DNA of 64,000 nt from an uncultured bacterium (GCA_963695435.1 OY968788.1:413456-477455), one strand, 5' to 3'; positions 3,338 through 60,980 are shown, numbered from the stretch's first letter. Translations and numbers: made by a program. Notes: a model not told the origin generated them from the sequence alone.

Positions 3338-4938
3338 AACGCAGAGCTGTTATTAAAAACGAACAGAATTTCACGATTATTTCTTAGCCAGTGAACGGTC
3401 GCCTCATCACTTAGGTCGTAATATGCCCAATCAATTTGGGGAAGAAGATTATAGATGGGATGTTCGTAACGCGCGCCTTCCGCCCCCAACACACTTTGAT
3501 CAGGAGTGCGTAAAACATATTTAATATTTGGACCGAGAGTAATGTTATCCAAGAATTCGTGCACTTGTTCTCCGCGAACATGCCAGATTGGGTTGGAACT
3601 CGAAAATGCCTTAGGCGCTAGAGAATAAACATCAAAATCGGGATAATAAAATTGATAGTGCCTAAGGCCAAAGAAAATATATCGATTGGAGGCAACAATA
3701 ACTGTATTCTCGGGAGTGAATTTTTCGTGAATTAATTTGGATGTTTCCGCCGATCCCCTATCCATCACCTGAACCGAGGGCAAACCAGCGCTTAAATAAT
3801 CGTAGGCGTCGGGATTAAGCGTATAAAATTGATAAATCTGGAAAGTTAGTACGGCTATAAAGCTCACCCCAATTACCAAATAGCCATAGATTTTAGAAAA
3901 TTTAGCTGCCACTTTGGCAATAGAGGCGGTACTTGCTCCAGCAAGAACCAATAATACTGGTGTAATAAATAGAAGGTAGCCGTTATTGGTCAGCCAGACA
4001 GTAATCACGAACAATAGACCGGGGATGATGGTTAATGACCAAAACCAGACCCAAGGCCAGCTGATTTTAAGATACTGTTTGGATTCGCGAGTAATAAACG
4101 GTATTGCACCCAAACCCAGCAACACCAAGACAGGCAGGAACGCCGAGCGTAATAAAGTAACCGCAAAACTTAAGCGACCAATCATAGCCTTGAAAGTAAT
4201 GGAGTTAGAAGGGTCGAGTGAAATTAGACTGGTCAACCGCCAATTGAGAGCGAGGTATTGGCCCAATCCCCCCGAGATGATTATCAGTGGGATTGCCCAG
4301 AGCAAATTGAGCCCAACCCAGAGTGGCAAAGCCCAGTTGATTTGTCGCCGCCAGTTTTTATAGTGCAGAAAGACAAAAACTATTAGTGGCAGGGTGATAA
4401 TAGCCGAGAATTGACGAATACCACCCAAAAAGGCGCTGATCACCAATAACCAGACTAGAGTAGTATTGCTAGGATGACGAAAGTGGCGATAAGCTACAAG
4501 AATCAAACCAGCAACCACAACTGTTTCAACGATGTAAACTTCAGCAACTAAACCGTGAAACCAAATTGATGAATTGAAAATAAACCAAATACCGGCTAAA
4601 CAACCAACTAATTCACCAAATGCTTCGCGACCAAGTTGATAAATTAACACAAAACCAACAATTGACGCCACAATCCCTAGAATAATTAATGCAAGATTGG
4701 GATCGTGAACAACATAATTTATTAATTTGGCAAGTTCTACATATAAAATGTAGCCTGGTGGGTGGGGTTGGTGTTTAATGAGATCAAAATTATTAATAGC
4801 CAAGGCAAACTGAGCTGAATCCCAGTGGTAGAGATAGTGAGCGTGATACATCCAGCGAGTAATGATAATCGTCAGTGCTCCGACTGTCAGGCCGATATAC
4901 CGCCACCAGTAGTAGTTGAAATTACGCAACTTAACCAT
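3334..4938 (-). CDS. GT-C fold membrane glycosyltransferase (PMT_2/GT39/GT83-like).
   Basis: Polytopic membrane protein. First extracytoplasmic loop carries an HPPGY motif resembling the HPP(L/F) loop-1 motif of GT39/GT83 enzymes. Large C-terminal soluble domain. Translationally coupled to 1832..3337. Confidence 0.55.
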   Translation of the reverse strand: MVKLRNFNYYWWRYIGLTVGALTIIITRWMYHAHYLYHWDSAQFALAINNFDLIKHQPHPPGYILYVELAKLINYVVHDPNLALIILGIVASIVGFVLIYQLGREAFGELVGCLAGIWFIFNSSIWFHGLVAEVYIVETVVVAGLILVAYRHFRHPSNTTLVWLLVISAFLGGIRQFSAIITLPLIVFVFLHYKNWRRQINWALPLWVGLNLLWAIPLIIISGGLGQYLALNWRLTSLISLDPSNSITFKAMIGRLSFAVTLLRSAFLPVLVLLGLGAIPFITRESKQYLKISWPWVWFWSLTIIPGLLFVITVWLTNNGYLLFITPVLLVLAGASTASIAKVAAKFSKIYGYLVIGVSFIAVLTFQIYQFYTLNPDAYDYLSAGLPSVQVMDRGSAETSKLIHEKFTPENTVIVASNRYIFFGLRHYQFYYPDFDVYSLAPKAFSSSNPIWHVRGEQVHEFLDNITLGPNIKYVLRTPDQSVLGAEGARYEHPIYNLLPQIDWAYYDLSDEATVHWLRNNREILFVFNNSSAL

Positions 4939-4959
4939 TAAGTTTATTGTCGCACAAAA

Positions 4960-4989
4960 TTGACCCCACTTTTATAAGCGGGGTCAATA
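4960..4989 (-). terminator. Intergenic hairpin (ttgaccccgc/gcggggtcaa, followed by a T-rich run on the minus strand) between the WxL-like gene and the downstream GT-C genes. Likely a partial terminator or attenuator.
   Basis: 8-9 bp GC-rich stem followed by ttttgtg on the minus strand. Same placement as terminator 17759..17788 in the paralogous locus. Confidence 0.45.
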
Positions 4990-5027
4990 TAATTCGAATA
5001 ACCTTCTAATTTATAAAAGGTAAAAGA

Positions 5028-5639
5028 TTAAGTACCATCGCTAGCCAGCAATGTTAGCACGAATTTACCCGTATATTCACCAGCAGGAAATACGGCTGGG
5101 ACAGGCACGGTGAATTTTATACCGTTGATTCTGGCTGCCATTGGTGCGTTGTAGGTTGAGTTGAAAATGTTGCGCAGAGTGCCGATTTCTACGTCGTTGC
5201 CTTCGCCAATTCCAATTTTTGTACCATCCCATGTGGCGACATTGCTGATGGTGGCGTTGCCGGGATGGACTTTAATGGTGCTGGCCAAAATTGAGTTAGT
5301 GCCACTATTCATATTGCTGGCGTTAACACGAACTGACCAGTAGGAGTTAGCTGCACCGCGTAGGTCACTAACAACATGGTTGCTTAAAACATTATTACCA
5401 GTGGCACCACTACCAACTCCAACAGCAGCAAAAGCCAAGGCAATATCACCATTGCTTAACGAAAGAGCACCGGCGGTAACTCCAATGTTGGTATCGATAT
5501 TATTAGTTAGTCCTGCAAAAACACCTGCTTGCGAATTGAACCACATCAAGCCGACGACCAAAAGAATTAGGCCGCCATAAATTTGTTGTGTTACCTTTGC
5601 TTGGACCTTGTGTAATACAAGATCATTACTGTTTTCCAT
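5028..5639 (-). CDS. Small secreted surface protein with N-terminal signal anchor and a WxL-like C-terminal domain. Paralog of 17108..17734.
   Basis: TM anchor GGLILLVVGLMWF. Gly/Ala/Asn/Thr-rich body. W-x-V/L motifs (SYWSVRV, ATWDG). C-terminal YTGKFVLTLL resembles the second WxL motif. Probable start at MENSND (5637-5639) preceded by AGGGGG; the ORF track extends to 5681. Confidence 0.55.
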   Translation of the reverse strand: MENSNDLVLHKVQAKVTQQIYGGLILLVVGLMWFNSQAGVFAGLTNNIDTNIGVTAGALSLSNGDIALAFAAVGVGSGATGNNVLSNHVVSDLRGAANSYWSVRVNASNMNSGTNSILASTIKVHPGNATISNVATWDGTKIGIGEGNDVEIGTLRNIFNSTYNAPMAARINGIKFTVPVPAVFPAGEYTGKFVLTLLASDGT

Positions 5640-7915: not shown

Positions 7916-9695
7916 GCAGTCGGATATCTCGAAAATCCGCCACTCCGCCAGTCATATCTTGGCGGAAGCGGTTTTGAATCTGTATCCCAAGACTAAACTC
8001 GCCATCGGCCCCGCCGTTGAGGATGGATTTTACTATGATTTGGATTTTCCCACTCCTCCCGAGGAGAAGGAGTTGGAAAAGATAGAAGCTGAAGCAAATC
8101 GGATAATTTCCGAAGAGCGGACTTTCAAGCGTTCCGAAATGCCGATTGATGAGGCAATTGAACAAGCGAAGGCGGAAAAACAACCTTACAAGACAGAATT
8201 GTTGGAAGATTTGAAAGCGCGGGGCGAGAAAATTGTTTCCTTCTATAGCTCGATGTCGGGCGATAAAATTACTTTTACCGATTTGTGCGCTGGTCCACAT
8301 GTGGATAATACCTCCGAAATTGGCGCGTTTAAAATTACAAAATTAGCCGGTGCCTACTGGCGCGGTGACGAAAAAAATAAACAACTCACTCGCATTTACG
8401 GAACTGCCTTTGCGACTAAAGAAGAATTGGACGAATATTTGTTGATGCTGGAAGAAGCAAAGAAACGCGACCATCGCAAACTCGGTCAAGAATTAGATTT
8501 GTTTTCACTACACGAAGAAGCTGGTTCGGGTTTGGTGTATTGGCATCCTAAAGGAAGTCGGGTTAGAAAAGTTGTTGAAGATTTTTGGCGGGAAGAACAT
8601 ATTCGCAACGGTTATGAAATTTTGTTCACCCCGCACATAGGAAGAGCGTGGTTGTGGGAAACTTCTGGACATCTTGGGTACTACAACGAAAATATGTACT
8701 CCCCAATGGAGATAGATAAGGATGATTATTACATCAAGCCGATGAATTGTCCTTTCCATATTTTGATGTACAAAACCCGCACTCGTTCATATCGGGATTT
8801 GCCAATGAGGTGGGCAGAGCTTGGAACAGTTTACCGCTACGAGCGCTCGGGTGTTTTGTATGGATTACTTCGGGTTCGCGGATTTACGCAAGATGACGCG
8901 CATATTTTCTGTACGCCTGAACAAATCGAAGATGAGGTTTCGGAAACTTTGCGATTCTCACTTTCAATGTGGAAAGCATTTGGATTTACTGATATCAAGG
9001 CATATCTTGCTACTAAGCCCGAAAAAAGTGTTGGTGATTCTGCTGATTGGGATGTTGCGATTGAATCTTTGCGCAAAGCTATAGATAAGGAAGGTTTGCA
9101 ATATGAAATGGACGAGGGCGGAGGCGCATTTTATGGACCGAAGATTGATTTGAAAATAAAAGATGCTCTGGGGCGGGAATGGCAGATGACCACGATTCAG
9201 TTCGATTTCACTCTGCCTGAAAGATTTGATATGACTTTTGTGGATGCCACTGGCAAAGAGCGCCGACCATTTATGGTGCATCGGGCGTTGCTTGGTTCTA
9301 TTGAAAGATTTTTTGGCGTATTGATTGAACATTACGCTGGAGCATTTCCGGTTTGGCTGGCTCCTGTGCAGGTGAAAGTTCTCCCTATTAGCGAAAAACA
9401 TTTGGAATATGCGGGGAAGGTTTATCAGGAATTACGCGAAGCGGGTTTGAGGGCAGAACTGGATGAAAGCAACGAATCGGTTGGCAAGAAAATCCGCGAA
9501 GCGGAAATAAATAAGATACCTTATATGTTGGTGGTTGGTGATAAGGAAAAAGAAGCTGGCACAGTTGCAGTTCGTAGTCGCGCTAAGGACCCCGCCTGCA
9601 ACGATGAGCGTAGCACTTCGGGCAGGGATTTGGGCGCGATGGATGTGAAAAAGTTTGTGAAATTAATTCACAATGAGATTAACGCGAAAAGATGA
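7875..9695 (+). CDS. thrS: Threonyl-tRNA synthetase.
   Basis: SASHILAEAV second-additional-domain signature. Class II catalytic core (HRKLGQELDLF, FTPHIGRAWLWETSGH). C-terminal anticodon-binding domain. 5' end overlaps the previous gene, so the true start may be an internal Met. Confidence 0.9.
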   Translation: MRMAKKIRNAKADKQSDISKIRHSASHILAEAVLNLYPKTKLAIGPAVEDGFYYDLDFPTPPEEKELEKIEAEANRIISEERTFKRSEMPIDEAIEQAKAEKQPYKTELLEDLKARGEKIVSFYSSMSGDKITFTDLCAGPHVDNTSEIGAFKITKLAGAYWRGDEKNKQLTRIYGTAFATKEELDEYLLMLEEAKKRDHRKLGQELDLFSLHEEAGSGLVYWHPKGSRVRKVVEDFWREEHIRNGYEILFTPHIGRAWLWETSGHLGYYNENMYSPMEIDKDDYYIKPMNCPFHILMYKTRTRSYRDLPMRWAELGTVYRYERSGVLYGLLRVRGFTQDDAHIFCTPEQIEDEVSETLRFSLSMWKAFGFTDIKAYLATKPEKSVGDSADWDVAIESLRKAIDKEGLQYEMDEGGGAFYGPKIDLKIKDALGREWQMTTIQFDFTLPERFDMTFVDATGKERRPFMVHRALLGSIERFFGVLIEHYAGAFPVWLAPVQVKVLPISEKHLEYAGKVYQELREAGLRAELDESNESVGKKIREAEINKIPYMLVVGDKEKEAGTVAVRSRAKDPACNDERSTSGRDLGAMDVKKFVKLIHNEINAKR

Positions 9696-9714
9696 CGCGA
9701 TATAGTTTTTGCGC

Positions 9715-9786
9715 GTCATCCTGAGCGAGCAAAGCGAGTCGAAGGATCTAAAAATATTATAGATTCTTCGTTTCACTCAGAATGAC
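9715..9786. repeat. Palindromic intergenic element, family 1 (GTCATCCTGAGCG..GAAGGATCT..AGATTCTTC..CAGAATGAC). Empty copy.
   Basis: Nested inverted repeats: outer gtcatcctgag/ctcagaatgac, inner gaaggatct/agattcttc. Four more copies in the window. Confidence 0.8.
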
Positions 9787-9955
9787 AAGAAGTTATGAGA
9801 CTAAGTAGAAAAGATAAGGTTGACAGTCTGGATCGTCATCATGCAGGACGGGATTTAAAATTGCGTAAACGCCAGACTTCCACTACCGATAATCGCAAAT
9901 CAATTCAGTTAATCTCGAAACTAGGTAAAAAAGTAAAATGACATCCCGAAGGGTG

Positions 9956-10290
9956 TCATCCTGAGCGTAGCGAAGGATCTATGGATAAAACCTATTATGT
10001 CTATATAATGGCAAGCCGATCAGGCGTGCTATATACTGGTGTAACCAGCAACTTGGAACGGAGAGTATACGAACATAAACATGGGATTATAGTCGGTTTT
10101 TCCAAAAAGTATCAGACCAACGCATTGGTTTATTACGAGCATACCGGAGACGTTGAATCAGCCATTGTTCGCGAGAAACAAATCAAGGGTTGGCTTCGCG
10201 CTAAAAAAGAAAAATTAATTCAAAATATGAACCCAAAATGGAATGATTTATCAGAAAGTTTTATAGATTCTTCACTGCGTTCAGAATGAC
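9956..10290 (+). mobile_element. Family-1 palindromic element whose central loop is replaced by a GIY-YIG nuclease gene (filled copy).
   Basis: Left arm tgtcatcctgagcgtagcgaaggatct runs directly into the ATG at 9981. Right arm atagattcttcactgcgttcagaatgac supplies the TGA stop at 10287-10289. Empty copies have aaaaatattat in place of the ORF. Confidence 0.7.
9981..10289 (+). CDS. GIY-YIG nuclease family protein (YhbQ/UPF0213-like, about 100 aa).
   Basis: YVYIMASRSGVLYTGVTSNLERRVYEHK is a canonical GIY-YIG motif. Small single-domain protein. Confidence 0.85.
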   Translation: MDKTYYVYIMASRSGVLYTGVTSNLERRVYEHKHGIIVGFSKKYQTNALVYYEHTGDVESAIVREKQIKGWLRAKKEKLIQNMNPKWNDLSESFIDSSLRSE

Positions 10291-10309
10291 AAAGAGAGGA
10301 GCTTTCAGA

Positions 10310-11197
10310 ATGACAAAAAATATATCACGGCAAAAAGTCATTGCAATAGTGGGGCCGACCGCCTCGGGAAAATCCGCGTGGGCGGTTGATTTGGCAAAAA
10401 AATATAACGGTGTAATAATCTCCGCCGATTCCAGACAAGTCTACAAGGGACTGAATGTCGCTACCGCCAAAATAACCAAAACGGAGATGAGTGGCATTCC
10501 CCACTATCTTTTGGATGTAGTAAAGCCAACCGAAAGTTTTGATGTGGCAACATATCAAAAACTAGTTTATGAATTGCTGAAAAAGTTGCGAAATAAAAAA
10601 CTTCCCATCATCGCGGGCGGAACGGGACTGTATGTTCAAGCGGTCACAGACGGTTATGTTTTTCCGACTACAAAGCCAAATTTGAAACTGCGCGCAAAGT
10701 TAGAAAAACAACCACTGTCAGAACTTGTCAGCAAACTAAAGAAACTCGCCCCTGACCTGCAGATTGATTTCAAAAATCCTAGACGAGTAATTAGAGCATT
10801 GGAAATTTATTCACAAACAGAAAGTCGTCCTGCCAAACATGAAACCCCCTTTGACACATTGAAAATAGGGATTAAATTATCCGTAGCAGAACAGGAAAAA
10901 CGGATTGCCAAACGAATCCAGCAAATGGATTTTGACGCACTGATTGCAGAAACTAAAAAACTAATCAAAGCAAAGTTTGATTTCGGGAGTAATCCCTTAA
11001 CCGCCTTTTACTATCGACTAGTTAAAGATTGGTTGGAGAAAAAAATAACTAAGTCGGAACTGATAGAAAAAATGATTCGCGCCGACCGCAAATATGCCAA
11101 GCGTCAAATGACTTGGTTCAAAAAAGACCCTCAAATCCATTGGGTAGAAAATCTAACCGACGCCGATCAGCTAGTCCGCCTTTTCCTAAAAAAATAA
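10310..11197 (+). CDS. miaA: tRNA dimethylallyltransferase.
   Basis: P-loop VIAIVGPTASGKS, DSRQVYKGLNVATAK motif. Length and order typical of MiaA. ORF-track start 10286 lies inside the repeat; Met at 10310 preferred. Confidence 0.9.
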   Translation: MTKNISRQKVIAIVGPTASGKSAWAVDLAKKYNGVIISADSRQVYKGLNVATAKITKTEMSGIPHYLLDVVKPTESFDVATYQKLVYELLKKLRNKKLPIIAGGTGLYVQAVTDGYVFPTTKPNLKLRAKLEKQPLSELVSKLKKLAPDLQIDFKNPRRVIRALEIYSQTESRPAKHETPFDTLKIGIKLSVAEQEKRIAKRIQQMDFDALIAETKKLIKAKFDFGSNPLTAFYYRLVKDWLEKKITKSELIEKMIRADRKYAKRQMTWFKKDPQIHWVENLTDADQLVRLFLKK

Positions 11198-11206
11198 CTT
11201 ATTCCC

Positions 11207-11230
11207 CAAAACTCACGATCGTGAGTTTTG
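11207..11230. terminator. Bidirectional rho-independent terminator between convergent miaA and the GT2 gene.
   Basis: Perfect palindrome caaaactcacgatcgtgagttttg flanked by A/T runs on both strands. Confidence 0.7.
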
Positions 11231-11231
11231 C

Positions 11232-11292
11232 GACTAGTGGCTAGTGGATAATTGTTTGTGGCTATTGTCTATTTGTCTGTCGTCTATTCGTC
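11232..11292. repeat. Low-complexity direct-repeat tract (ctagtggctagtgg / gtctatt units).
   Basis: Similar tracts at 50351..50445 and 55205..55310. Confidence 0.6.
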
Positions 11293-11295
11293 TAG

Positions 11296-12114
11296 CTACG
11301 GACGGCGAGGCAAAGTAAAATCTTGAATGTAACCAACCTGCAAATATTTTCCGCGCATCATATTCATTTTTATGCGGAATAAGTCTTTTAGTGTGCGAAT
11401 AGCTTCTTTTCCTGCGCGAACACGGCTATCTGGATCGTTGTACCATTCAATCCCCACCTCCTTGAACGGATATCCAAGTTGCCGAGCAATCACAAAAGCT
11501 TCGATATCGAAACCGAATCTTTCCAATCGAACATTGGCAAAAATATTCTTGCCAGCATTGCGTTCAAAAAGTTTGAAACCACATTGGGTGTCCCAAATTC
11601 CCGGCACTGCCACAATCCGAATTAGTAAGTTGGAAGCACGGGAAAGTAATTTGCGATGTTGAGCTTGGTGAATATGGATATGAGCACCCTTAATGTGACG
11701 AGAACCAAAAACGATTGGGAAAGTATCGACATACGGCCACATCTTCTCGATTTCCTCAATAGGAGTGGCGTTGTCGGCATCCGTAAAGAGCAGATATCTG
11801 CCTTTGGCGGACAACATTGCTCTCTTTACCGCTGCTCCCTTGCCCTGATTTTGGATGGCGGTAATCAGTTTCAGCTCTGGCCAGCCCTCCTGAATAATCT
11901 TTACGACTGGAACAGTGGTGTCTTTGCTCCCGTCATCAGAAACAATCACCTCATAGGTGTAAGATTGGGCATCCAGATATTTTCTCATCTGGGCGAGAGT
12001 TTTTCCGATACGGCGCTCTTCGTTATAGGCTGGAACAATAATTGAAAGCTGAACCTCCCCTACCGCAACGGTTGGTTGAGTTACTGGCTGGCTGGGGGCG
12101 ATTCCTACTTCCAT
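11296..12114 (-). CDS. GT2 family polyprenyl-phosphate glycosyltransferase (DPM1/GtrB/CsbB-like).
   Basis: LSIIVPAYNEERRI...VIVSDDGSKDTT (DxD-type GT-A signature). Start chosen at MEVGIAP; the longer ORF N-terminus (MDSRLRGNDRSGG) is a translation of a family-2 hairpin repeat. Confidence 0.8.
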   Translation of the reverse strand: MEVGIAPSQPVTQPTVAVGEVQLSIIVPAYNEERRIGKTLAQMRKYLDAQSYTYEVIVSDDGSKDTTVPVVKIIQEGWPELKLITAIQNQGKGAAVKRAMLSAKGRYLLFTDADNATPIEEIEKMWPYVDTFPIVFGSRHIKGAHIHIHQAQHRKLLSRASNLLIRIVAVPGIWDTQCGFKLFERNAGKNIFANVRLERFGFDIEAFVIARQLGYPFKEVGIEWYNDPDSRVRAGKEAIRTLKDLFRIKMNMMRGKYLQVGYIQDFTLPRRP

Positions 12115-12143
12115 ACCTCTTATTGTACCGTATCCTCCTGACC

Positions 12144-12170
12144 TGTCATTCCCGCGCAGGCGGGAATCCA
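12144..12170. repeat. Small hairpin repeat, family 2 (ATTCCCGC-loop-GCGGGAATGACA).
   Basis: 8-bp perfect stem. Copies at 30548..30574 and 38500..38526 with compensatory stem changes (cccgc/gcggg versus ccagc/gctgg). Confidence 0.7.
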
Positions 12171-12209
12171 TTTTCTCCGTCATGCTGAATTTAGTTCAGT
12201 ATCTTTTTT

Positions 12210-12284
12210 GTCATTCTGACGCTAGGAAGAATCTATAATATTCTCTTAGATCCTTCCCCCGACAAGTCGGGGTCGAGGATGACA
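12210..12284. repeat. Family-1 palindromic element, inverted orientation, with extra internal hairpin (ccccgacaagtcgggg).
   Basis: Reverse complement aligns with the copy at 16915..16995 along its whole length. Confidence 0.8.
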
Positions 12285-12292
12285 ATAAATTG

Positions 12293-12742
12293 TTACTTCT
12301 TGAATATCAGGAATTTGGGAGCGAGGAAGTTCCAAAGGAAAATCAAAACGACTGAAGTAAATTTCACAAGATTCAAATCGAAATGAAATATTAAACTCAT
12401 CAAATAAACAAATCCATTTGAGATGCCCAAGCCAACCAGACTAACAAAAACAAAAAACGGAAGTTGTGTTTGCCATTTCCCTGTTGTGTCGCCAAAGGTC
12501 CAATATTTGTTCATAAAGAAACTGTTGATAACAGCTACAACAAACGCAACTGTGTTGGCTGGCATAATCGGCCACGAATAGTAAACCAAAACATTCAATA
12601 GTCCAATATCGATAGCAGTATTCAAACCGCCCACAAGAGCGAACTTTGAGAATTGTCTAACCAGCTTCTCTACTTTCTCCGAATGAACACCAGTATATTT
12701 GCTAATCAGTTTGCTTGTCCAAACTATGAGATTGTTTAGCAT
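12293..12742 (-). CDS. GtrA-family small membrane protein (putative polyprenyl-phosphate-sugar flippase).
   Basis: About 150 aa with 4 TM helices. GtrA-like core FALVGGLNTAIDIGLLNVLV. Start set at MLNNLIV to avoid overlap with the upstream gene. Confidence 0.65.
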   Translation of the reverse strand: MLNNLIVWTSKLISKYTGVHSEKVEKLVRQFSKFALVGGLNTAIDIGLLNVLVYYSWPIMPANTVAFVVAVINSFFMNKYWTFGDTTGKWQTQLPFFVFVSLVGLGISNGFVYLMSLIFHFDLNLVKFTSVVLIFLWNFLAPKFLIFKK

Positions 12743-12746
12743 AATT

Positions 12747-13472
12747 TTATTTTTGAGCGAGAACAACCAAACTACTCCCCCATGGTAAGCGCCAGTTATG
12801 CGACAACCACCAAGCTTCAATTTTGCTGAGCCAGACTAAAATACCAGAGGTGTGAGTCGCCTCGCTGGCTGTTTCGTAGGTGGTTTTTTCCTTTCGACCC
12901 ATAATGAAACGCACTGCAACAAAAACTGGAAATACAAAAAAGAAAAATGGTGAAAGTAAAACTACTTTGAAACCAACTTGTTCTAATTTCCTTTTTAAGT
13001 CAGCCGGATTGTAGCGCCGTTGGTGATGTAAGGCTTTGTCGTGTCCTGTCCACATCCATTGATACGCAGGTACGGTAATAAAAACATATCCGTTTGGTTT
13101 GAGAGTGGTGTACCAATTTCGTAAAGCTGAAATATCATCTTGAATATGTTCTAAGACATCAAATGCGGTGAGCAAATCAAATTGAGAATCAAAGGAAAGA
13201 TTTGTTCCGTCAGTTTGAATCAATTCGTCATAGACATGTTTGTTCCGACAATAGTCGAGTGCTTCGGCGCTAGTATCCAACCCTGTCACCCTCCCCCAGT
13301 TTTTGAGCCAGTTGTAATTAATACCCGTACCACAACCAACATCTAAAATATCCAAATTTTGACCCTGAGGAATATGTTTCCCCAGTACCTTTTGCAAAAC
13401 TTCCCGACGGCCAATATGCCACCAGTAGTTCTGCTCTTCCTGCTCCATCCGACCGTATTCAGATAGCTCCAT
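12747..13472 (-). CDS. Class I SAM-dependent methyltransferase.
   Basis: Motif I LDILDVGCGTGINYNWL. About 240 aa. Co-directional with GtrA and the GT2 gene. Confidence 0.75.
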   Translation of the reverse strand: MELSEYGRMEQEEQNYWWHIGRREVLQKVLGKHIPQGQNLDILDVGCGTGINYNWLKNWGRVTGLDTSAEALDYCRNKHVYDELIQTDGTNLSFDSQFDLLTAFDVLEHIQDDISALRNWYTTLKPNGYVFITVPAYQWMWTGHDKALHHQRRYNPADLKRKLEQVGFKVVLLSPFFFFVFPVFVAVRFIMGRKEKTTYETASEATHTSGILVWLSKIEAWWLSHNWRLPWGSSLVVLAQK

Positions 13473-13579
13473 AAACCTATTATACGGACATAGGGATTTT
13501 CGGGTATAATAAACCCGTCGCAGAGCTGATTTTTACCAACCCTGTCGGGGCGTATAGTTGAAAGGTTGTGGCTTGGGGC

Positions 13580-13652
13580 CGGGGCGTAGCGCAGTTGGTA
13601 GCGCGCCGCGTTTGGGACGCGGAGGTCGCACGTTCGAATCGTGTCGCCCCGA
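13580..13652 (+). tRNA. tRNA-Pro (anticodon TGG).
   Basis: Cloverleaf readable: acceptor CGGGGCG/CGCCCCG, U8, D-stem GCGC, anticodon stem CCGCG/CGCGG with loop TTTGGGA, T-loop TTCGAAT. Flanked by complementary ggcttgggg/ccccaagcc. Confidence 0.85.
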
Positions 13653-13736
13653 CCCCAAGCCATCACAAAAATATGCGCGGTCCGACACTTCGGTCGGACA
13701 GGTCGTTTTGTCGCCCCGACCAGATACAATAGTCCT

Positions 13737-15029
13737 ATGAGATACACTCAATCTTTCATCAAAACTATTCGGGAAGTTCCCAAGGAAGCGGAGGTAATCA
13801 GCCACCAATATCTTCTGCGGGGTGGATTTGTCACGACACTAGCGGCGGGTTTTTACACTTACCTCCCGATGGGATTTCGGGTGTTTCGGAAAATCTACGA
13901 CATCATCACCGAAGAGCTGAACAAGATAGGTGTCGAAGATATGATAATGCCTGTCGTTCATCCAGCCAGACCGTGGAAAGAAACAAAGAGATTTTTTGAA
14001 GTTGGACCCGAATTGTGGAAAATCAAAAACCGTTCGGACGAAGATTTTGTATTGGCAATGACTCACGAGGAAATCGTGACAGACGCCGCCAAAAAAATTA
14101 TCAATTCATATAAAGATTTGCCGAAGTTGGTCGGTCAAATCCAAACCAAAGTTCGTGATGAAGCGCGAGTACGGGGCGGATTACTGCGTTTGCGCGAATT
14201 TACAATGCAAGATGCTTATTCTTTCAACCGAGACGAAAAAGGATTGGATGAAATTTATCTGAAGTTTATTGATGCCTATAAAAATATATTTGAACGGATG
14301 GGTGTCAAGACAGTAGTGATTGAATCCGACACGGGCGCAATGGGCGGAAGCGGTGCGCACGAATTTATGATGATTGCGGAATCCGGCGAGGATAAAATTG
14401 TCACCGATGGCGAGCGTGCGGTAAATGCGGAGAAATTAGGGATTACTCGGGAAGATGATTTGAAGTCGGTTGATTCCCGTCGCAAGATCGAGGCGTTTTT
14501 TGGCGCTGGCAAAAAAGTAGAATTCCTGCGAGGAATTGAAGTTGGAAACATCTTTAAGCTTGGGACGAAATACTCTACCCCCCAGAAACTGATGTATATA
14601 GATGAAAACAACGAATCCAAGCCGGTGATTATGGGAAGTTATGGAATCGGTTTGGATAGGTTAGTGGCCGCGATTGTGGAAGCCAGTCATGATGACAAAG
14701 GAGTCATTTGGCCAAAAGCAGTCGCCCCGCATCAAGTTCATTTAGTGAGTTTAGGAAACGATCCAATAGTGACAGCGGCGGCTACCAAACTTTATGAAAG
14801 TTTAAATTCATCCGGAATTGATGTTTTCTATGATGACCGCGAAGAAGTTAGCGCGGGAGAAAAATTTTCGGATGCGGATTTGATTGGAATCCCCTGCCGA
14901 GTGACCATTAGCAACAAAACATTGGCAGAAGATTCTGTCGAAATTAAATTGCGCAACTCTCAAGATGCAAAGCTGGTGAAATTGACAGAAATGACAAAAA
15001 AACTGAAGGAAGATTTTTTGTCATCCTGA
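13737..15029 (+). CDS. proS: Prolyl-tRNA synthetase.
   Basis: Class II aaRS motifs and C-terminal anticodon-binding domain. Start set at MRYTQSF because the ORF-track start overlaps tRNA-Pro. The TGA stop lies inside a family-1 repeat. Confidence 0.85.
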   Translation: MRYTQSFIKTIREVPKEAEVISHQYLLRGGFVTTLAAGFYTYLPMGFRVFRKIYDIITEELNKIGVEDMIMPVVHPARPWKETKRFFEVGPELWKIKNRSDEDFVLAMTHEEIVTDAAKKIINSYKDLPKLVGQIQTKVRDEARVRGGLLRLREFTMQDAYSFNRDEKGLDEIYLKFIDAYKNIFERMGVKTVVIESDTGAMGGSGAHEFMMIAESGEDKIVTDGERAVNAEKLGITREDDLKSVDSRRKIEAFFGAGKKVEFLRGIEVGNIFKLGTKYSTPQKLMYIDENNESKPVIMGSYGIGLDRLVAAIVEASHDDKGVIWPKAVAPHQVHLVSLGNDPIVTAAATKLYESLNSSGIDVFYDDREEVSAGEKFSDADLIGIPCRVTISNKTLAEDSVEIKLRNSQDAKLVKLTEMTKKLKEDFLSS

Positions 15030-15095
15030 GCGAAGCGAAGGATCTAAGATATTTTATAGATGCTTCGGTCGCCACGGTGACCTCGAGCATGACAG
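15020..15095. repeat. Family-1 palindromic element (empty copy), between proS and argS.
   Basis: gtcatcctgagcgaagcgaaggatcta...agatgcttcggtcgccacggtgacctcgagcatgacag. Confidence 0.8.
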
Positions 15096-15099
15096 TAAT

Positions 15100-16914
15100 A
15101 TGAATATTCCTGCAGACATCGAACAATCAGTTGCCAAAGCCGTAAAAAAATTATGGCCGACTGTTGATGTAAAAATAGATATTGTCACCCCGCCCAACAA
15201 AGAATTTGGTGATTATTCCTGCGCCGTAGCTTTGCAATTAGCAAAAGTTGCGGGTGAAAGCCCGACATCAATCGCCGAGAAGATAAAAGACTCTCTCGGG
15301 AAAATTGAATACATAGAGGAAGTCACTGTCACCGCCCCCGGTTATGTAAATTTCAAACTGGACTACCCTAAACTTGCCGAAGCTCTGCTCTGCCATGATT
15401 CTGGATTCTTGATTCATAATTCAACCCCCCTCAACATCAGCGTTGAACATACTTCGGTCAACCCCAACAAAGCCGCTCACATCGGGCATCTTAGAAATGC
15501 TTGTTTGGGAGATGCGCTGGCGCGAATCTTAAGAGGTGTCGGGCACACCGTCGAAGTGCAAAACTACATTGATGATTTGGGCGTACAGGTGGCGGATAGT
15601 GTAGTGGCTTTTGAAACTTTTGGCGACGCGCCAGAAGGTTACGAAATTGATAAGTGGCTTTGGAAGATTTATTCCGATATCAATAAAAAATACGAATCAG
15701 ACCCGAAACTTTTGAAGCGGCGGGAAGAAGTTTTGCATGAGATGGAGCAGGGCGAAAGTGAAACTGCTAAACAGATTGTAAAAGAAATCGTGGAAGCGCA
15801 GGGACAAACTTTTGCCCGATTTGGAATTGATTACGACCTGTTGGTGTACGAACACGACATCGTGAACAATCACTTGTGGGATAAATTGTTTGAAATATTA
15901 AAGAAAGAAAAGTTAATTATTCAACCTGGCACTGGCGAACATCAGGGCGCATGGGTGGTAAAGTTTGGTGAGTCTGAACGGGAGGATAAGATTTTGGTGA
16001 AAAGCGATGGATTACTTACCTACACCGCCAAAGATTTAGCATATGCACTGTGGAAATTTGGAAAAACGGATGAAATGAAAGGATATGAAAAACGGCTCTC
16101 CCCTATTAATCAGCATTTCAATATTGTTGATGAACGCCAGAGTTATCCGCAAGCAGTGATAAAACATGTGATTGGAAAACTGGGTTATAAAAAAGAAGCT
16201 GAAAACTATCTTCACCTGAAATATGGGGTAGTAAAACTCTCCAATAAGGCGGCGAAAAAAATGGGGGTAGATATTGAGCCTGATAAAAAATCGCAGTCGA
16301 TGTCGGGGCGCGCCGGAATTGGCGTTATGGTGGATGATTTGGTAGATACAACAACTGCGCAACAGATAAAAGAACACTCCACAGAAAAAGAGGTGGCGGA
16401 GAAGATTGCAATCGGCTCGATTCGCTATTATATGTTGAAATCTCGTCCTGAACGGGAAATCGTGTTTGATTTTGACGAAGCGCTGAAAACAGACGGTAAC
16501 ACTGGCGTATATCTGCAATATGCCTACGCCCGCGCCAATAATATTTTGTCTAAGGTTGTCCCTCCGTCCGTCGGGATAACAGACTCTGATTCTCCGAGGG
16601 TAAGCAAGGTTCCGAGTCCATCGAGGAAAGGAGATGCCTTGGTATTGAATGAATCAGAAAAGGAGTTGGTAAAGGTGTTGGGCGAGGCAAATCAAAGTGT
16701 CCAGCAAGCGGTTGAAAGTGCTGATCCTTCCCTTCTTTGTGATTATGCCTACAGATTAGCGAGCATTTTTGCCGGATTTTATGAAAATAGTCCTGTCCTA
16801 CAGGCTTCAGACGAAAAAACGAAGAGTTTTCGGCTGGGGCTGGTTTCCTCCTATAAGGAGATCTTAGGAACGACTTTAGATCTGTTGGGTATTCCCATTC
16901 TCCCCCGCCTCTAG
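15100..16914 (+). CDS. argS: Arginyl-tRNA synthetase.
   Basis: Class I HIGH motif (AAHIGHLRNA), N-terminal Arg-tRNA-binding add-on domain, DALR-type C-terminal domain. Confidence 0.9.
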   Translation: MNIPADIEQSVAKAVKKLWPTVDVKIDIVTPPNKEFGDYSCAVALQLAKVAGESPTSIAEKIKDSLGKIEYIEEVTVTAPGYVNFKLDYPKLAEALLCHDSGFLIHNSTPLNISVEHTSVNPNKAAHIGHLRNACLGDALARILRGVGHTVEVQNYIDDLGVQVADSVVAFETFGDAPEGYEIDKWLWKIYSDINKKYESDPKLLKRREEVLHEMEQGESETAKQIVKEIVEAQGQTFARFGIDYDLLVYEHDIVNNHLWDKLFEILKKEKLIIQPGTGEHQGAWVVKFGESEREDKILVKSDGLLTYTAKDLAYALWKFGKTDEMKGYEKRLSPINQHFNIVDERQSYPQAVIKHVIGKLGYKKEAENYLHLKYGVVKLSNKAAKKMGVDIEPDKKSQSMSGRAGIGVMVDDLVDTTTAQQIKEHSTEKEVAEKIAIGSIRYYMLKSRPEREIVFDFDEALKTDGNTGVYLQYAYARANNILSKVVPPSVGITDSDSPRVSKVPSPSRKGDALVLNESEKELVKVLGEANQSVQQAVESADPSLLCDYAYRLASIFAGFYENSPVLQASDEKTKSFRLGLVSSYKEILGTTLDLLGIPILPRL

Positions 16915-16995
16915 TGTCATCCTCGAGTCCCGACTTGTCGGAACGAAGGATCTATAATTTTATAGATTCTTCTCTTTACAGATCAGAATGACAGC
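16915..16995. repeat. Family-1 palindromic element (empty copy with internal cccgacttgtcgg hairpin).
   Basis: Begins immediately after the argS TAG stop. Outer arms gtcatcctcgag / tcagaatgacag. Confidence 0.8.
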
Positions 16996-17033
16996 TTCTT
17001 GGTAAGTTCATCGTCTATCGTCCAGCTTCACTC

Positions 17034-17062
17034 TTGACATAACCTGATTACTGTGCTATACT
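17034..17062 (+). promoter_or_regulatory. Sigma-70-type promoter (TTGACA-N17-TATACT) driving the WxL-like gene at 17108.
   Basis: Exact -35 consensus, 17-nt spacer, 5/6 match at -10. About 45 nt upstream of the ATG. Confidence 0.7.
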
Positions 17063-17107
17063 AAGAGAAAGTTAGTTGCCCTACAGGCAGAAAGCCCAAA
17101 AACAAAA

Positions 17108-17734
17108 ATGAAAAACAAGATTAGTAACCTTTTACAGGTTCAGGCAGAAATCAGCCGACAAGCCTTAGTGCTTGGCACGGTTTTGTTTTTCGCTGGTGTG
17201 ATGTCAATCGCAACAATCAAAGTTAGTAGTGCGGCTACCGGTGATACCAATATGCTGCAAAATGTTGAGGGTGGGGCTATGGCATTTGATAATGTTCCTA
17301 ATAATGTCAACTTTGGAGCTACTTCTCTGGGGGAGGTAAATGCAAATGTTAGTACTGGTAGCAGTGGTATTGTTCTTAACGATCTTCGTGGAACTAAGGC
17401 GGGTTGGTCAATTACTGGTTATGTAAATAGTAATTTTTATAGTGCTGCTACACCGGCCACCCAAATGGCTGTTGCGGATAGGTTGACTTGGCTCGCAAAT
17501 GCCGTAACAATCGCAAATATTACTGGTGATACTGGAGGCGTTGTCCAACAAGCTAATAATACTTTTACCGCAGCGGGTGATGCTGCTAATTTGACTCTTG
17601 CCCTTGATGTTGGTTCAGGTAATAATGGCGCGGGAGCTTACAATATTACTAATTTGGAATTTCAATATGATGTTCCTGCGTTAGCAACAGTTGCTGCTGA
17701 TTATAAAACAATGTTTACATTAACCATCGTCTAA
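17108..17734 (+). CDS. Small secreted surface protein with WxL-like C-terminal domain. Paralog of 5028..5639.
   Basis: Signal anchor ALVLGTVLFFAGVMSIA. Gly/Ala/Asn/Thr-rich body. GWSITGY and RLTWLANA (W-x-L) motifs. C-terminal YKTMFTLTIV. Monocistronic between a consensus promoter and a terminator. Confidence 0.55.
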   Translation: MKNKISNLLQVQAEISRQALVLGTVLFFAGVMSIATIKVSSAATGDTNMLQNVEGGAMAFDNVPNNVNFGATSLGEVNANVSTGSSGIVLNDLRGTKAGWSITGYVNSNFYSAATPATQMAVADRLTWLANAVTIANITGDTGGVVQQANNTFTAAGDAANLTLALDVGSGNNGAGAYNITNLEFQYDVPALATVAADYKTMFTLTIV

Positions 17735-30110: not shown

Positions 30111-30151
30111 TAGATGCTTCGCTCCGCTCGAGCATGACAAAAGAAAATTCC

Positions 30152-30472
30152 CTAGCGGATGCTACTGCCAAGATTCACAATCCAACTCGCCAACGCAGTA
30201 TTATTAACCAACCAATCCAATCCAAATAATAATCCAATCATCACTATCATAAGGATGACGACGAATACTAGGTCGCGGCGGATTACTTTGTAATGCTCGG
30301 GTGTACCGATTGCCATTGTGAACGTCGAACGTTCTCCAGCAGAAGCGATGGGAGTAGCTGAAACGGCTGTACCAGAAATCACCGGTGCTCCGATTGGAGC
30401 AACGGGTTGATTTTGATGGAGTGCGGCAACTTTTTGGAGTTCGCGCAAACGTTTGTTGAGGTTTTTGGACAT
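30152..30472 (-). CDS. Hypothetical small protein with C-terminal TM segment.
   Basis: ORF only, no recognisable domain. Confidence 0.35.
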   Translation of the reverse strand: MSKNLNKRLRELQKVAALHQNQPVAPIGAPVISGTAVSATPIASAGERSTFTMAIGTPEHYKVIRRDLVFVVILMIVMIGLLFGLDWLVNNTALASWIVNLGSSIR

Positions 30473-30547: not shown

Positions 30548-30574
30548 TGGATTCCCGCCTACGCGGGAATGACA
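30548..30574. repeat. Family-2 hairpin repeat.
   Basis: ggattcccgc-cta-cgcgggaatgacaa. Confidence 0.7.
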
Positions 30575-33160: not shown

Positions 33161-33506
<346 letters not shown>

Positions 33507-34376
33507 AGGGCTTAGATTCAAAGCTGCACCTTGCGGTTGACCTCTCCTCTTGACCTACTGGCACTGGGCAAGCATCAGTCCCTATACGTCATCTTTCGAT
33601 TTAGCAGAGACCTGAGTTTTTGTTAAACAGTCGCCTGAAGTCTTTAGCTGCGGCCTGTCTTGCGACAGGCAATCCTTATTCCAAAGTTACGGATGATTTT
33701 TTGCCGAGTTCCTTAACGAGGGTTCTCTCGTACGCCTGAGGCTACTCGCCCTATCCACCTGTGTCGGTTTCGGTACGGATGCTTTGAAGTCTCGCTAGAA
33801 GTTTTTCTTGTCAGTCTGGATCAATCGAATCGTCTCATCCCGAAGGAATCAACTTTCCCACAGCTTGGGTTCGGTCCGATAAATCGGACCAGTCTCCCGG
33901 ATTTGCCTAAGAGACACCTTAACTGCTTAGACTCGGAAACCTGTCCGAGCTCAACCTACCAGTCCGCGTCACTCCATTGCTAAACGCGCGAGCCAGCGAA
34001 ACCGACATTTACTTCACCTTGCGGCAAAGCAATCATTCGGCTCACCAATTCGCTTGTTTTGGTCGACTTCAACGCAGTACAGGAATATTAACCTGTTGTC
34101 CATCGCTTACGCCTTGCGGCCTCAGCTTAGGTCCGACTAACCCTGAGACGAAAACCGTTGCCCAGGAAACCTCGGATAAATCGGCGTCGAAGGTTTTCAC
34201 TTCGATCTCGCTACTCGTGCCAACATTCTCACTTCTATGCGCTCCACCCAACCTCACAGTTGAACTTCACTGCAGCATAGAACGCTCCCCTACCACTGCC
34301 ATCTTGCGATGACAATTCGTATCTTCGGTATCCAACTTAGCCCCGTTACATTTTCGGCGCAGACACACATCGACCA

Positions 34377-34433
<57 letters not shown>

Positions 34434-34929
34434 TAATGTGTCTCCACTTCCTTTCACACTTAGTTGGAATTAGGGACCTTAGATGACGATCTGGGCTGTT
34501 TCCCTTTTGATTTACGACGCTTAGCCGCCGTTTTCTGACTCCCAGGCTTTAACCGGTCAGTATTCGGAGTTTAATTGGACGTGGTACCTTGCGGCCCAAA
34601 TCCATTCAGTAGCTCTACCACTGCCGGGAACGCTCTGAGGCTATACCTAAATATATTTCGGGGAGAACCAGCTATCTCTGAGTTCGATTGGCATTTCACC
34701 TCTAACCACAGTTCATCCCCCCACTTTTCAACGTAGGTGGGTGCGGCCCTCCACTGCTTTTTACGGCAGCTTCGGCCTGACCATGGTTAGCTCACTCAGT
34801 TTCGGGTCTAATCCCTGCCACTTCAATCGCGCTATTCGCACTTGCTTTCGCTTCGGCTCCTCTGTCTAAACAGATTAGCCTTGCGGCAGAGATTAACTCG
34901 TTGGCTCATTCTACAAAAGGCACGCCGTC

Positions 34930-35207
34930 GCCCCGCCAATTTAAAGCTCGTATCTAGACGTTGTTTCAGTCTTGTCCACGTGGTTCCATAGTTCTTCAAC
35001 ACTAACTCGCGTTTGCGAGCAGCGTGAGGATCTTGATACGCCTCGTAATAGACAAGTTCATATGCACCACGTTTCTGATGTTCAGACAACCTGCGACGCA
35101 AATCGGGCGTTTGCCCGATGTACGGTTTTCCAGTGTCAGCATTTATCAGTACGTAAAGATAATGCATAAATTAATTATACGTCCATACCAACTCTAAATT
35201 GGCGGGG
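34930..35207 (-). mobile_element. Insertion in the 23S helix-25 region: a 19-bp-arm palindromic element (cccgccaatttaaagctcg/agctctaaattggcggg) carrying a GIY-YIG gene. Likely an RNase III-excised intervening sequence.
   Basis: The arms form a perfect extended stem replacing the helix-25 tip. An empty 48-bp copy of the same palindrome is at 35692..35739. Confidence 0.6.
34945..35167 (-). CDS. GIY-YIG nuclease (YhbQ-like) encoded inside the 23S helix-25 insertion.
   Basis: HYLYVLINADTGKPYIGQTPDLRRRLSEH. The ORF-track C-terminal extension (to 34832) is read-through into the palindrome arm and rRNA. Confidence 0.7.
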
Positions 35208-35265
35208 CTCCGACTCTTAAACGAACACACGGTTTCAGGTACTATTTCACTCCCCTCACAGGGGG

Positions 35266-35305
<40 letters not shown>

Positions 35306-35691
35306 GAGAAATGATATTTAGCCTTACCAGATGGTCCTGGCAGTTTCCGGCAGGATTTCACGGGTCCCACCGTACTTAAGAAAGAATATATCAGAGTGAT
35401 TTGCTTTTCGTTTACGGGACTTTCACCCTCTATGGTTACCCTTTCCAGGGACCTTCAACTAAGCAAACCATTTTTGACTCCTGAGTCGGTTCTACTGTCC
35501 GACAAAATATTCCCCTTGCAACCCTCTCCTACACAACGCCAGTAGGCTATAAGTGTAAGAAAGTTTAGGCTCTTCCCTTTTCGCTCGCCGCTACTAAGGG
35601 AATAAACATTTGTTCTATTTTCCTCGTGTTACTAAGATGTTTCAGTTCACACGGTTCCCTCCTCACTATCTATGTATTCAATAGTGGGTTC

Positions 35692-35739
35692 CCGCCAATT
35701 TAAAGCTCGTATAAAAACCAGCTCTAAATTGGCGGGAGG
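35692..35739. repeat. Empty copy of the 23S-embedded palindrome (cccgccaatttaaagctcg-tataaaaacc-agctctaaattggcggg) within 23S domain I.
   Basis: Replaces a short native hairpin. Both copies begin the loop with tat. Confidence 0.7.
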
Positions 35740-36298
35740 ATTACTCCATTCGGACATTCCCGGATCAGCGGGTGTTTGGCCCCTCCCCGAGACTTTTCGC
35801 AGCCTACTACGTCCTTCTTCGGTCATTTCTCCCAAGGCATCCACCGAGTGCTCTTATGTAGCTTGATCGCTTTTGTTTTCTTAATAAGGCTAGTGCCTTA
35901 TAACTTAAATCGGCGATTTAAGAAAACCATTGCTTTCATTTTTTCATTGATGCCCAAGTTGTCAATGAACCAAATTTCCAAAATCGTTACTGAAAAAACT
36001 CAAAAAAATAGCAGGGATCACCCTGCTTGTGCGAGAACCAATTTAGGTCCGCTTTATGCAGGCGTGAAAGTTAACAAATTCAAATCAGCCGTGTTGGTGT
36101 AACTGGAAAGACTAATATATATGTAGGTGTAACTCAAACGCTTAATTAGTGAGTGATATATAGCTGATATTCAGCTAGTTGGTATTCTATAATATATCCA
36201 AAATCAACGCAAGAGGTTTTCGCCATTTTGTGGGGCAAAAGTCAAGGCAAGGCCGATTTATATCTGGAAATAAGGTTAGACTGGTACAATAAACCCGT

Positions 36299-38268: not shown

Positions 38269-38498
38269 CTCTCCTATCCGCCATTGGAGGAGGGATGTAT
38301 TGAGCCAACAAAATTAGCGCAGGCGAAGGCATGTTTGAACCCGATGGCTATCGGGTGAGTTTGCCGATAGCGAAGAAAGCTAATTTTGTTAGGCGAACAA
38401 TCCCGACGACTGGCGGGACGGTTTGGTTACTTTGCCAAGACAAAGTAACCGCGGTACAAGGGTCGCGCAGACCCTTGAAAAGAAAAACAAAAAGAAAA
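38269..38498. repeat. About 250-nt structured intergenic element, copy 2 of 3.
   Basis: See copy 1. ggttactttgccaagacaaagtaacc hairpin covaries with gtcgctttgacaagacaaagcgac (copy 1) and ggttactttcctcaagcggaaagtaac (copy 3). Confidence 0.6.
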
Positions 38499-38499
38499 T

Positions 38500-38526
38500 G
38501 GATTCCAGCCTTCGCTGGAATGACAA
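38500..38526. repeat. Family-2 hairpin repeat (attccagc-cttc-gctggaatgaca).
   Basis: Compensatory stem variant of 30548 and 12144. Confidence 0.7.
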
Positions 38527-60674: not shown

Positions 60675-60697
60675 TCCCGGTAGAAGAATTTAGAACT

Positions 60698-60972
60698 TAT
60701 ATTACTTGGTTATTATACCGATAGTCTTTGAGTCTGCGATGGAGCAGTCTTCGGCCTTGGGTAGTTTTGAGATATCTCTCGCGTCTTCGAGCATCTGATT
60801 CGGTGAGACAAGCTTCGTAATAAATCAGTGCCCAAGGCCGATAAGGTTTAGTCGATTGATCGCGCCCCTGATTATGTTCTAGGAACCTCTTTTTAAGATT
60901 GTCCGTAAAGCCGACATATAGATTGCCGTGTTCAACACTTTCTAACACATAAGTATAGAACATAATCATTCT
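60698..60972 (-). CDS. GIY-YIG nuclease (YhbQ-like). Third copy in the window.
   Basis: FYTYVLESVEHGNLYVGFTDNLKKRFLEHNQG. ORF-track N-terminal extension overlaps the lgt 3' end and is probably not translated. Confidence 0.7.
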
Positions 60973-60980
60973 AAATTTCT

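Follow-up and report, generated by a model that had tools for sequence, protein, structure and literature searches.

A probable Ssn/SRM system in a candidate-phyla-radiation bacterium, with a GIY-YIG nuclease gene set between hairpin repeats

A nuclease gene between two hairpins

The Ssn proteins, first described in Neisseria, are single-domain GIY-YIG nucleases of about 94 amino acids (Chenal et al. 2025, Nat Commun 16:2388, PMC11893778). SsnA of N. meningitidis (94 amino acids, CDD cd10448) binds the hairpin of the NTS repeat only as single-stranded DNA (ssDNA) and in one orientation only, and cuts a few nucleotides upstream of it; the GTC 5' of the palindrome matters for cleavage, the C 3' of it matters for binding, and mutation of Tyr6, Tyr17 or Glu64 abolishes cleavage (PMC11893778). 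The Ssn enzymes have no activity on double-stranded DNA (dsDNA) or RNA, SsnA does not bind RNA, and three more homologues cut their own repeats, which makes four characterised enzymes in all (PMC11893778). Such repeats, the SRMs, lie near 71% of ssn homologues and on both sides of 42%; the published search sequence, HGTCWYN(0-2)YYVSBRHN(0-5)WNVSBRGN(0-2)RNCYNB, was built by hand from 29 genomes, and the authors noted that NTS-ssnA-NTS resembles an insertion sequence (IS) and compared it with REP/RAYT (PMC11893778). Here we analyse a stretch of 64,000 nucleotides (the window) from an uncultured bacterium of the candidate phyla radiation (GCA_963695435.1 OY968788.1:413456-477455), in which the gene of a 102-residue GIY-YIG nuclease stands between two hairpin repeats. 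This feature is in all likelihood an Ssn/SRM system and its protein a member of the Ssn family. The phenomenon was published in 2025 and is already known; the window is a further example of it, in a candidate-phyla-radiation genome.

The ssn gene is free-standing and occupies 9981-10289 on the plus strand, between thrS and miaA. Its left arm is a C-type SRM hairpin (GTCATCCTGAGCGTAGCGAAGGATC, 9955-9979, plus strand) with a Shine-Dalgarno-like AAGGA 4 nt ahead of the ATG at 9981. Its right arm is a T-type hairpin read on the minus strand (GTCATTCTGAACGCAGTGAAGAATC, 10266-10290) which, when translated, gives the last seven codons of ssn (DSSLRSE) and the stop codon, TGA at 10287-10289. An earlier note on this DNA had described the gene as the filled copy of a palindrome that is found empty in four other places, with the left arm running into the ATG and the right arm providing the TGA. 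Our reading agrees, as the open reading frame (ORF) lies between the two halves of the same palindrome, and the empty copies are present at 9715-9786, 12210-12283, 15020-15093 and 16916-16992, with lengths of 72-77 bp. The note had also placed the copies at the ends of aminoacyl-tRNA synthetase genes, one of them containing the proS stop codon, and this too is what we find: the first copy follows the end of thrS (9695) by 20 nt, the argS stop codon (16912-16914) adjoins the fourth, and the proS stop codon (TGA, 15027-15029) is in the left arm of the third.

A Pfam search of the protein found GIY-YIG (PF01541, E 1e-14, residues 5-77 of 102) as the only domain, and Y8, Y18 and E65, the equivalents of SsnA Y6, Y17 and E64, are invariant across 30 aligned homologues. 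More than 5800 homologues are detectable, from many phyla. We fetched 80 homologous loci (numbered with an L below) from one-genome-per-species contigs; counts out of 81 refer to the loci scored for oriented arms. Proteins whose genes have canonical NTS flanks (L047, L051, L086 and L089) are 55-61% identical to the window protein (E 1e-35 to 1e-38). The catalytic residues of the L051 protein, which is 61% identical, have the same positions as in SsnA (Y6, Y17 and E64), and NTS-consensus hairpins lie beside its gene. These loci led to the identification: the arms of L047 and L051 read GTCATTCCCGCGNAGGCGGGAATCC, which contains the core of the Neisseria dRS3 repeat. Literature searches on GIY-YIG genes with palindromic repeats, miniature inverted-repeat transposable elements (MITEs) or terminal inverted repeats gave nothing relevant until Ssn itself was searched for. 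The YhbQ-type label first given to the gene has to be abandoned. The UPF0213/YhbQ proteins share the GIY-YIG catalytic fold, and two of their structures are the best PDB matches (1zg2, E 1.3e-5; 1ywl, E 5.5e-4), but no repeat association is described for that family and, since its match is only at about E 1e-5 while the SRM-flanked relatives match at 1e-35 or better, we reject the assignment.

The likeness to the Neisseria system extends beyond the single GIY-YIG domain of about 95 residues and its conserved Tyr/Tyr/Glu triad. The window gene lies between inverted GTC-palindrome-C repeats, more copies are found between genes and clustered near it, and three hairpins in the window have the Neisseria-type core. 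The two differ in host, since that of the window belongs to the candidate phyla radiation, and in the class of the arms that flank the gene. The window protein reads KGWLR where the NTS-associated proteins read KKWNRxWK, most window copies are inverted doublets with unlike arms, and the member described here is known from sequence alone.

Structure of the repeats

The arms share a general layout, consisting of GTC, a stem that opens with AT, a variable centre, the complementary stem closing with AT, and C. All 10 doublet and cassette arms and five solo hairpins of the window show GTC-AT...AT-C, over lengths of 24-37 nt. In type-A arms a 5-bp stem is combined with a tandem G-A mismatch and, in the centre, a GCGNAGC mini-hairpin or an inserted stem-loop. 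The halves of one palindrome are unlike, ATCCT/AGGAT being set against ATTCT/AGAAT or, in one case, ATGCT/AGCAT.

For a test of covariation, arms from the window and all fetched loci were gathered with the anchors GTCAT-x-CT...GAAG-y-ATC, leaving the pair x-y free. Of 243 arms, 241 have a Watson-Crick pair at this position, where 100 would be expected under independence (T-A 123, C-G 91, G-C 25, A-T 2). In 31 of 37 head-to-head doublets, which come from 18 loci and are not all independent, the arms differ at the covarying pair, so that 16% are alike against 41% expected (p ~0.001). On the sense strand the helix between the arms has a C-A mismatch, and each arm stays Watson-Crick internally. 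Because pairing within the arm is kept while pairing between the halves would be mismatched, the unit is the short hairpin. What had been described as a single looped palindrome consists of two independent, unlike short hairpins in inverted orientation. Folded whole as RNA, the doublets reach -24 to -31 kcal/mol (z -2.3 to -5.3).

Doublet 1 (9715-9786, plus strand) begins with a C-type hairpin at 9715-9748 on the plus strand (GTC-ATCCT...AGGAT-C), 20 nt past the thrS stop, and after a 13-nt spacer ends with a T-type hairpin at 9762-9786 on the minus strand (GTC-ATTCT...AGAAT-C). Doublet 2 (12210-12283, minus strand) is inverted relative to the others and flanked by the GT2 and GtrA genes, both on the minus strand; its T-type arm is at 12210-12233 on the plus strand and its C-type arm at 12249-12283 on the minus strand. 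The plus-strand doublets 3 and 4 both have a C-type arm on the plus strand (15020-15044 and 16916-16952, respectively), paired on the minus strand with a G-type arm in doublet 3 (15059-15093) and a T-type arm in doublet 4 (16965-16992), which starts 2 nt past the argS stop. The spacers of the doublets look like the first and last bases of the gene, ATG.../...TTTTAT, and the arm copies of the window are 69-96% identical to one another. In every window doublet the C-type arm comes first when read in the sense of the flanking genes. As a general rule this order was dropped, as other loci show left and right arm types in both orders, and we regard it as a local feature.

Five solo hairpins and an arm-end copy add to the list in the earlier note. 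Two are on the plus strand: an NTS-like hairpin at 12145-12168 (GTCATTCCCGCGCAGGCGGGAATC), which folds as ssDNA at -8.9 kcal/mol and matches the published SRM motif, and a hairpin at 12179-12203 (GTCATGCTGAATTTAGTTCAGTATC) with an ortholog in L081 at 12109-12133. Three are on the minus strand, a type-A hairpin at 30113-30138 (GTCATGCTCGAGCGGAGCGAAGCATC) and NTS-like hairpins at 30550-30573 (GTCATTCCCGCGTAGGCGGGAATC) and 38501-38524 (GTCATTCCAGCGAAGGCTGGAATC). The NTS/dRS3-type core ATTCCC-N8-GGGAAT is present at 12145-12168 and 30550-30573, and a close variant, ATTCCAGCGAAGGCTGGAAT, at 38501-38524. The arm-end copy, at 10304-10314 on the minus strand, is a truncated second copy of the end of the right ssn arm (on the plus strand, TTCAGAATGAC) and holds the likely miaA start, the ATG at 10310. 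In total the window has 15 hairpins, 12 of which are in 9.7-17 kb. The core GTCATYCTGAG, allowing at most one mismatch, occurs nine times in the 64 kb against 1.66 expected, a count reached by 0 of 100 shuffles, and eight of the nine occurrences fall in 9715-16992. Both hairpin classes are therefore found in the window, yet the ssn gene there is of type A only; the NTS-type ssn is carried at the thrS-miaA junction by the relatives L086 and L089. A 106-residue ORF with a weak Imm17 match (30152-30472, E 0.004) lies between two of the minus-strand hairpins, the type-A hairpin at 30113-30138 and the NTS-like one at 30550-30573.

Arms and protein types among homologous loci

Properly oriented arms are present on both sides of the gene in 42 of the 81 loci and on at least one side in 61. 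In 47 of 80 loci the best inverted-repeat score between the gene flanks lies above the 99th percentile of controls with the same geometry. Hairpins of the form GTC-stem-stem-C have a density of 6-9 per kb up to 150 nt from ssn and of 0.1-0.3 per kb farther off; shuffles give 0.1. In most loci the left arm lies 10-30 nt ahead of the start codon and the right arm at or just past the stop codon. About a third of the best 120 homologues end in DSSLRSE or near variants, which is the right arm translated. The stop codon precedes the right arm in some loci and falls within it in others, which makes the arm a nucleic-acid rather than a protein feature. These counts, from many phyla, support the link that the earlier note saw between the repeats and the nuclease gene. 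The note had named the opposite outcome as well, a filled arrangement unique to this site and other copies of the gene without arms, and that is not what the homologous loci show.

The class of arm co-varies with the type of protein across phyla. Proteins with KQIKKWNRxWK have perfect 8-bp hairpins of the NTS type in six of six cases, those with KQIKGW.R.KK, the window protein among them, have arms with a 5-bp stem and GAG...CGAAG, and among five proteins with KQIKG[GC]SR all three with detected arms have ATTGCGAGC arms. The protein motif that tracks the arms lies after the catalytic glutamate, and reads KGWLR in the window protein as opposed to KKWNRxWK in the NTS-associated proteins.

Two other GIY-YIG ORFs are found in the window, and a search for SRM flanks at both found none; neither is an Ssn. 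The first, of 111 residues (34832-35167, minus strand), lies inside the 23S rRNA gene (33500-35868, minus strand; Rfam LSU match, 1480 bits), weakly matches a group I intron endonuclease family, and looks like an intron-encoded homing endonuclease unrelated to ssn. The second (60697-61050, minus strand) has a core of about 90 residues starting at MFYTYVLE and, over 66 residues, shares only 38% identity with the Ssn protein. A small GIY-YIG ORF in L088 (10243-10509), also without hairpin flanks, is broadly similar to it in kind.

Insertion, rival readings and significance

Syntenic relatives of the window were found through MiaA homologues, in loci of 8-20 kb. They share the gene order thrS, 48-residue ORF, miaA, GT2, GtrA, methyltransferase, proS and argS, with the exceptions of L090, which has no upstream thrS, and L092, which is rearranged. 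L081 (MiaA 74% identical) has a type-A ssn at the junction (84% identical) and doublets in the same four places. Three different ssn types occupy the one thrS-miaA junction among the relatives. L086 (MiaA 86%) and L089 (68%) have an NTS-type ssn with NTS arms; in L086 a truncated type-A left arm, GTCATCCTGAGC, lies just upstream, and this locus also has an ortholog of doublet 4 with an identical right arm. L091 (74%) has a third ssn type, together with a truncated type-A left arm and, ahead of miaA, four stacked arm ends. Of the relatives with no ssn in the locus, L087 (79%) and L088 (74%) have no credible hairpins, and L090 (83%) has one decayed doublet only. SRM-like hairpins number 17, 16, 17, 5 and 2 in the syntenic loci with ssn and 0, 1, 1 and 2 in those without it in the locus (L087, L088, L090 and L092).

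In L087 and L088 there is no insert between proS and argS, which overlap by ATGA; the end of thrS overlaps the small ORF, whose stop codon in turn overlaps the miaA start. Because these relatives without ssn have abutting or overlapping genes and no hairpins at these places, the doublets and the cassette were inserted into junctions that had been minimal before, and the hairpins track the presence of ssn. Doublet 1, which is missing from L087, L088 and L089, is bracketed by a 23-nt duplication, ATGAGATTAACGCGAAAAGATGA, whose left copy (9673-9695, plus strand) ends thrS and whose right copy (9795-9817) starts the small ORF, keeping both intact; relatives without doublet 1 have one copy of the sequence, where thrS and the small ORF overlap. 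Target-site duplications were sought at all four doublets and found at this one only, and we do not count the duplication as evidence for transposition. Truncated ends of the right arm (TTCAGAATGAC) are repeated at 10277-10317 in the window, and stacks of arm ends also lie at 2930-3020 in L091 and 4590-4665 in L086, which suggests repeated insertion or replacement at the thrS-miaA junction.

The conserved, basic 48-residue ORF itself (9795-9941, plus strand) lies between thrS and the ssn cassette, had no match in a Pfam search, and is context outside the system. In L086 the interval between thrS and the small ORF (3750-3990) holds GAGTAACGAGT-type repeats in tandem, as well as an NTS-type hairpin with a loop enlarged by about 60 nt (GTCATTCCCGCG...GGCGGGAATCC). 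The ComM-like Mg-chelatase gene in L084 (4360-11381) appears split into an N-terminal part (4360-5052) and a C-terminal part (10551-11381); the roughly 5.5 kb between them includes a large serine recombinase and looks like an integrated element, and two LAGLIDADG ORFs lie further downstream. The proS ORF of the window as mechanically listed starts with GTG at 13641 and overlaps tRNA-Pro(TGG) at 13580-13654; the true start is probably further downstream.

Several points weigh against the Ssn/SRM assignment. The published SRM motif matches none of 257 type-A arms over all loci; in the window it matches at 12144-12171 and 38498-38525 only, and at no doublet or cassette arm. Since the motif was built by hand from 29 genomes, the miss is a gap in the search pattern and not an exclusion of type-A arms from the SRM concept. 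Single type-A arms fold weakly as ssDNA (-1 to -3 kcal/mol in a nearest-neighbour calculation) and do not beat shuffles, and as this energy is not significant the hairpin status of type A rests on the covariation. The correlation between ssn and SRMs covers loci of 8-20 kb rather than whole genomes. A protein search seeded with L051 gave no named Neisseria sequence in the top 120, and the likely placement with SsnA and cd10448 is by proxy, through identity to the NTS-flanked proteins. Cleavage by the window enzyme, or by any type-A enzyme with its arms, is putative, as is any role of Ssn beyond Neisseria.

A second reading, which overlaps with the first, takes the arm-ssn-arm cassette for an autonomous transposon with a GIY-YIG transposase, which mobilises the doublets in trans as MITEs. 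We consider this possible but doubtful. A single gene within terminal inverted repeats is what such an element would look like, as the authors of PMC11893778 remarked for their own system, and the insertions relative to L087 and L088, the duplication around doublet 1 and the likeness of the doublet spacers to the end bases of the gene all agree with it. So does the presence of three ssn types at one junction, leaving behind the truncated type-A left arm GTCATCCTGAGC and the stacks of arm ends, but homologous recombination through the flanking housekeeping genes could equally give a patchy distribution at one site. The other three doublets have no duplication, the window copies have diverged so that none is near-identical (69-96%), and the type-A gene and doublets at the same sites in L081, with 84% protein identity, argue for vertical inheritance. 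Strand transfer is not known for a nuclease of 95 residues and, with one cleavable hairpin per strand, each strand would be cut once, unlike in IS200/IS605 excision.

Comparison with described elements points in both directions. As in the REP/BIME/REPIN-RAYT systems, which are related to IS200/IS605, one gene is flanked by hairpin repeats on which its enzyme would act, the repeats occur between genes as inverted doublets, recognition would be of ssDNA hairpins, and the gene appears to be largely vertical, alongside a population of repeats. The window enzyme differs in being GIY-YIG instead of an HUH/Y1 transposase like IS200/IS605 TnpA, there is no cleavage tetranucleotide of the GTAG type, and neither a covalent intermediate nor strand transfer is known for Ssn. 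In common with MITEs such as the Correia elements of Neisseria, the doublets are palindromic insertions of about 75 bp at gene ends, can provide stop codons, and are present or absent at orthologous sites. They differ in having termini that are hairpins in their own right, with covariation inside each, in a parent element that has no DDE transposase gene, and in the lack of a consistent target-site duplication. That the empty copies are inserted, by comparison with relatives lacking ssn, agrees with the MITE-like part of the earlier proposal.

It is conceivable, though we hold it only tentatively, that the cassette and doublets form an active and previously unrecognised class of mobile element, built on a 95-residue GIY-YIG ssDNA nuclease and inserting preferentially at or beside hairpins. 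If true, this would explain the succession of ssn types at the thrS-miaA junction, the truncated and stacked arm ends, and the relatives that have neither ssn nor hairpins; the unlike arms of a doublet would mark left and right ends or guard against the instability of palindromes.

Classical homing, in which the palindrome would be a dsDNA site and the gene copied into the break, had been proposed in the earlier note and is very unlikely. GIY-YIG enzymes do include homing endonucleases, and the two halves between which the gene exactly fits also occur as one uninterrupted sequence. However, the characterised Ssn enzymes neither bind nor cut dsDNA, and homing enzymes of the I-TevI type, which share the catalytic fold, have a separate DNA-binding domain, cleave dsDNA and reside in introns, inteins or phage genes, whereas the window protein is a bare catalytic domain encoded by a free-standing gene. 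In the relatives without ssn these sites show no empty palindrome, as the whole doublet is inserted, the arms are independent and usually unlike hairpins, and in most homologous loci a spacer of 10-30 nt separates the arm from the start codon.

The other proposal in the note, insertion of the nuclease gene into a hairpin already present, here taken as a chance event in a host element such as a terminator or mRNA stabiliser, we judge extremely unlikely. The doublets do lie at gene ends, fold well as RNA, and in the window follow the orientation of the flanking genes. Against this, the gene lies between arms in 42 of 81 loci from many phyla, such an insertion cannot account for arms whose type varies together with that of the protein, and relatives do without hairpins at these junctions. 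The helix between the arms is the mismatched one on the sense strand, with each arm Watson-Crick, no T-run was found 3' of the hairpins in the sequence read at the copies, and an Rfam scan of 9000-17500 at E up to 1 returned tRNA-Pro only, and no described RNA family on the repeats; SsnA, moreover, does not bind RNA. That the hairpins act purely at the RNA level is at best very unlikely, given homologues without RNA activity and the same lack of an Rfam family and of a T-run.

Under the Ssn/SRM assignment, the arms are very probably the recognition sites of the nuclease, because homologues were shown biochemically to bind such repeats (PMC11893778). By analogy with the four characterised homologues, Ssn would bind an arm on the GTC-hairpin-C strand alone, and only in single-stranded DNA, such as could arise when DNA is replicated, repaired or taken up; the bound enzyme would then nick the same strand a few nucleotides upstream, just 5' of GTC. 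Specificity of the window enzyme for ssDNA is thus predicted from the literature. Because the two hairpins stand in inverted orientation, a cassette or doublet would have one cleavable site per strand, at its two outer edges and on opposite strands. The empty palindromes have the architecture of the cassette but lack the gene, and were inserted into once minimal intergenic junctions of a compact genome. We suppose more tentatively that the nuclease helps the repeats to spread, or is the reason for their retention, in a manner like that of REP/RAYT. As in Neisseria, the pair of enzyme and repeat may limit the recombination of incoming ssDNA.

The chief gain is one of correct classification, as what looked like a new homing system is a case of the Ssn/SRM system described in 2025. 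Part of the result is new, namely that type-A arms never match the published motif, that paired arms are usually unlike, and that arm type tracks a protein motif. The commonest class of arm among the relatives of the window protein escapes that motif, and because of this blindness the published frequencies of 71% and 42% are probably underestimates. For the Ssn/SRM field it should be of use that the arms of a doublet are systematically unlike at the covarying base pair. KGWLR and KKWNRxWK are candidate specificity determinants, and the enzyme-site pairs are candidates for ssDNA tools. Finally, the syntenic series of small genomes, in which insertions track ssn, bears on whether such elements should be seen as mobile or as domesticated.

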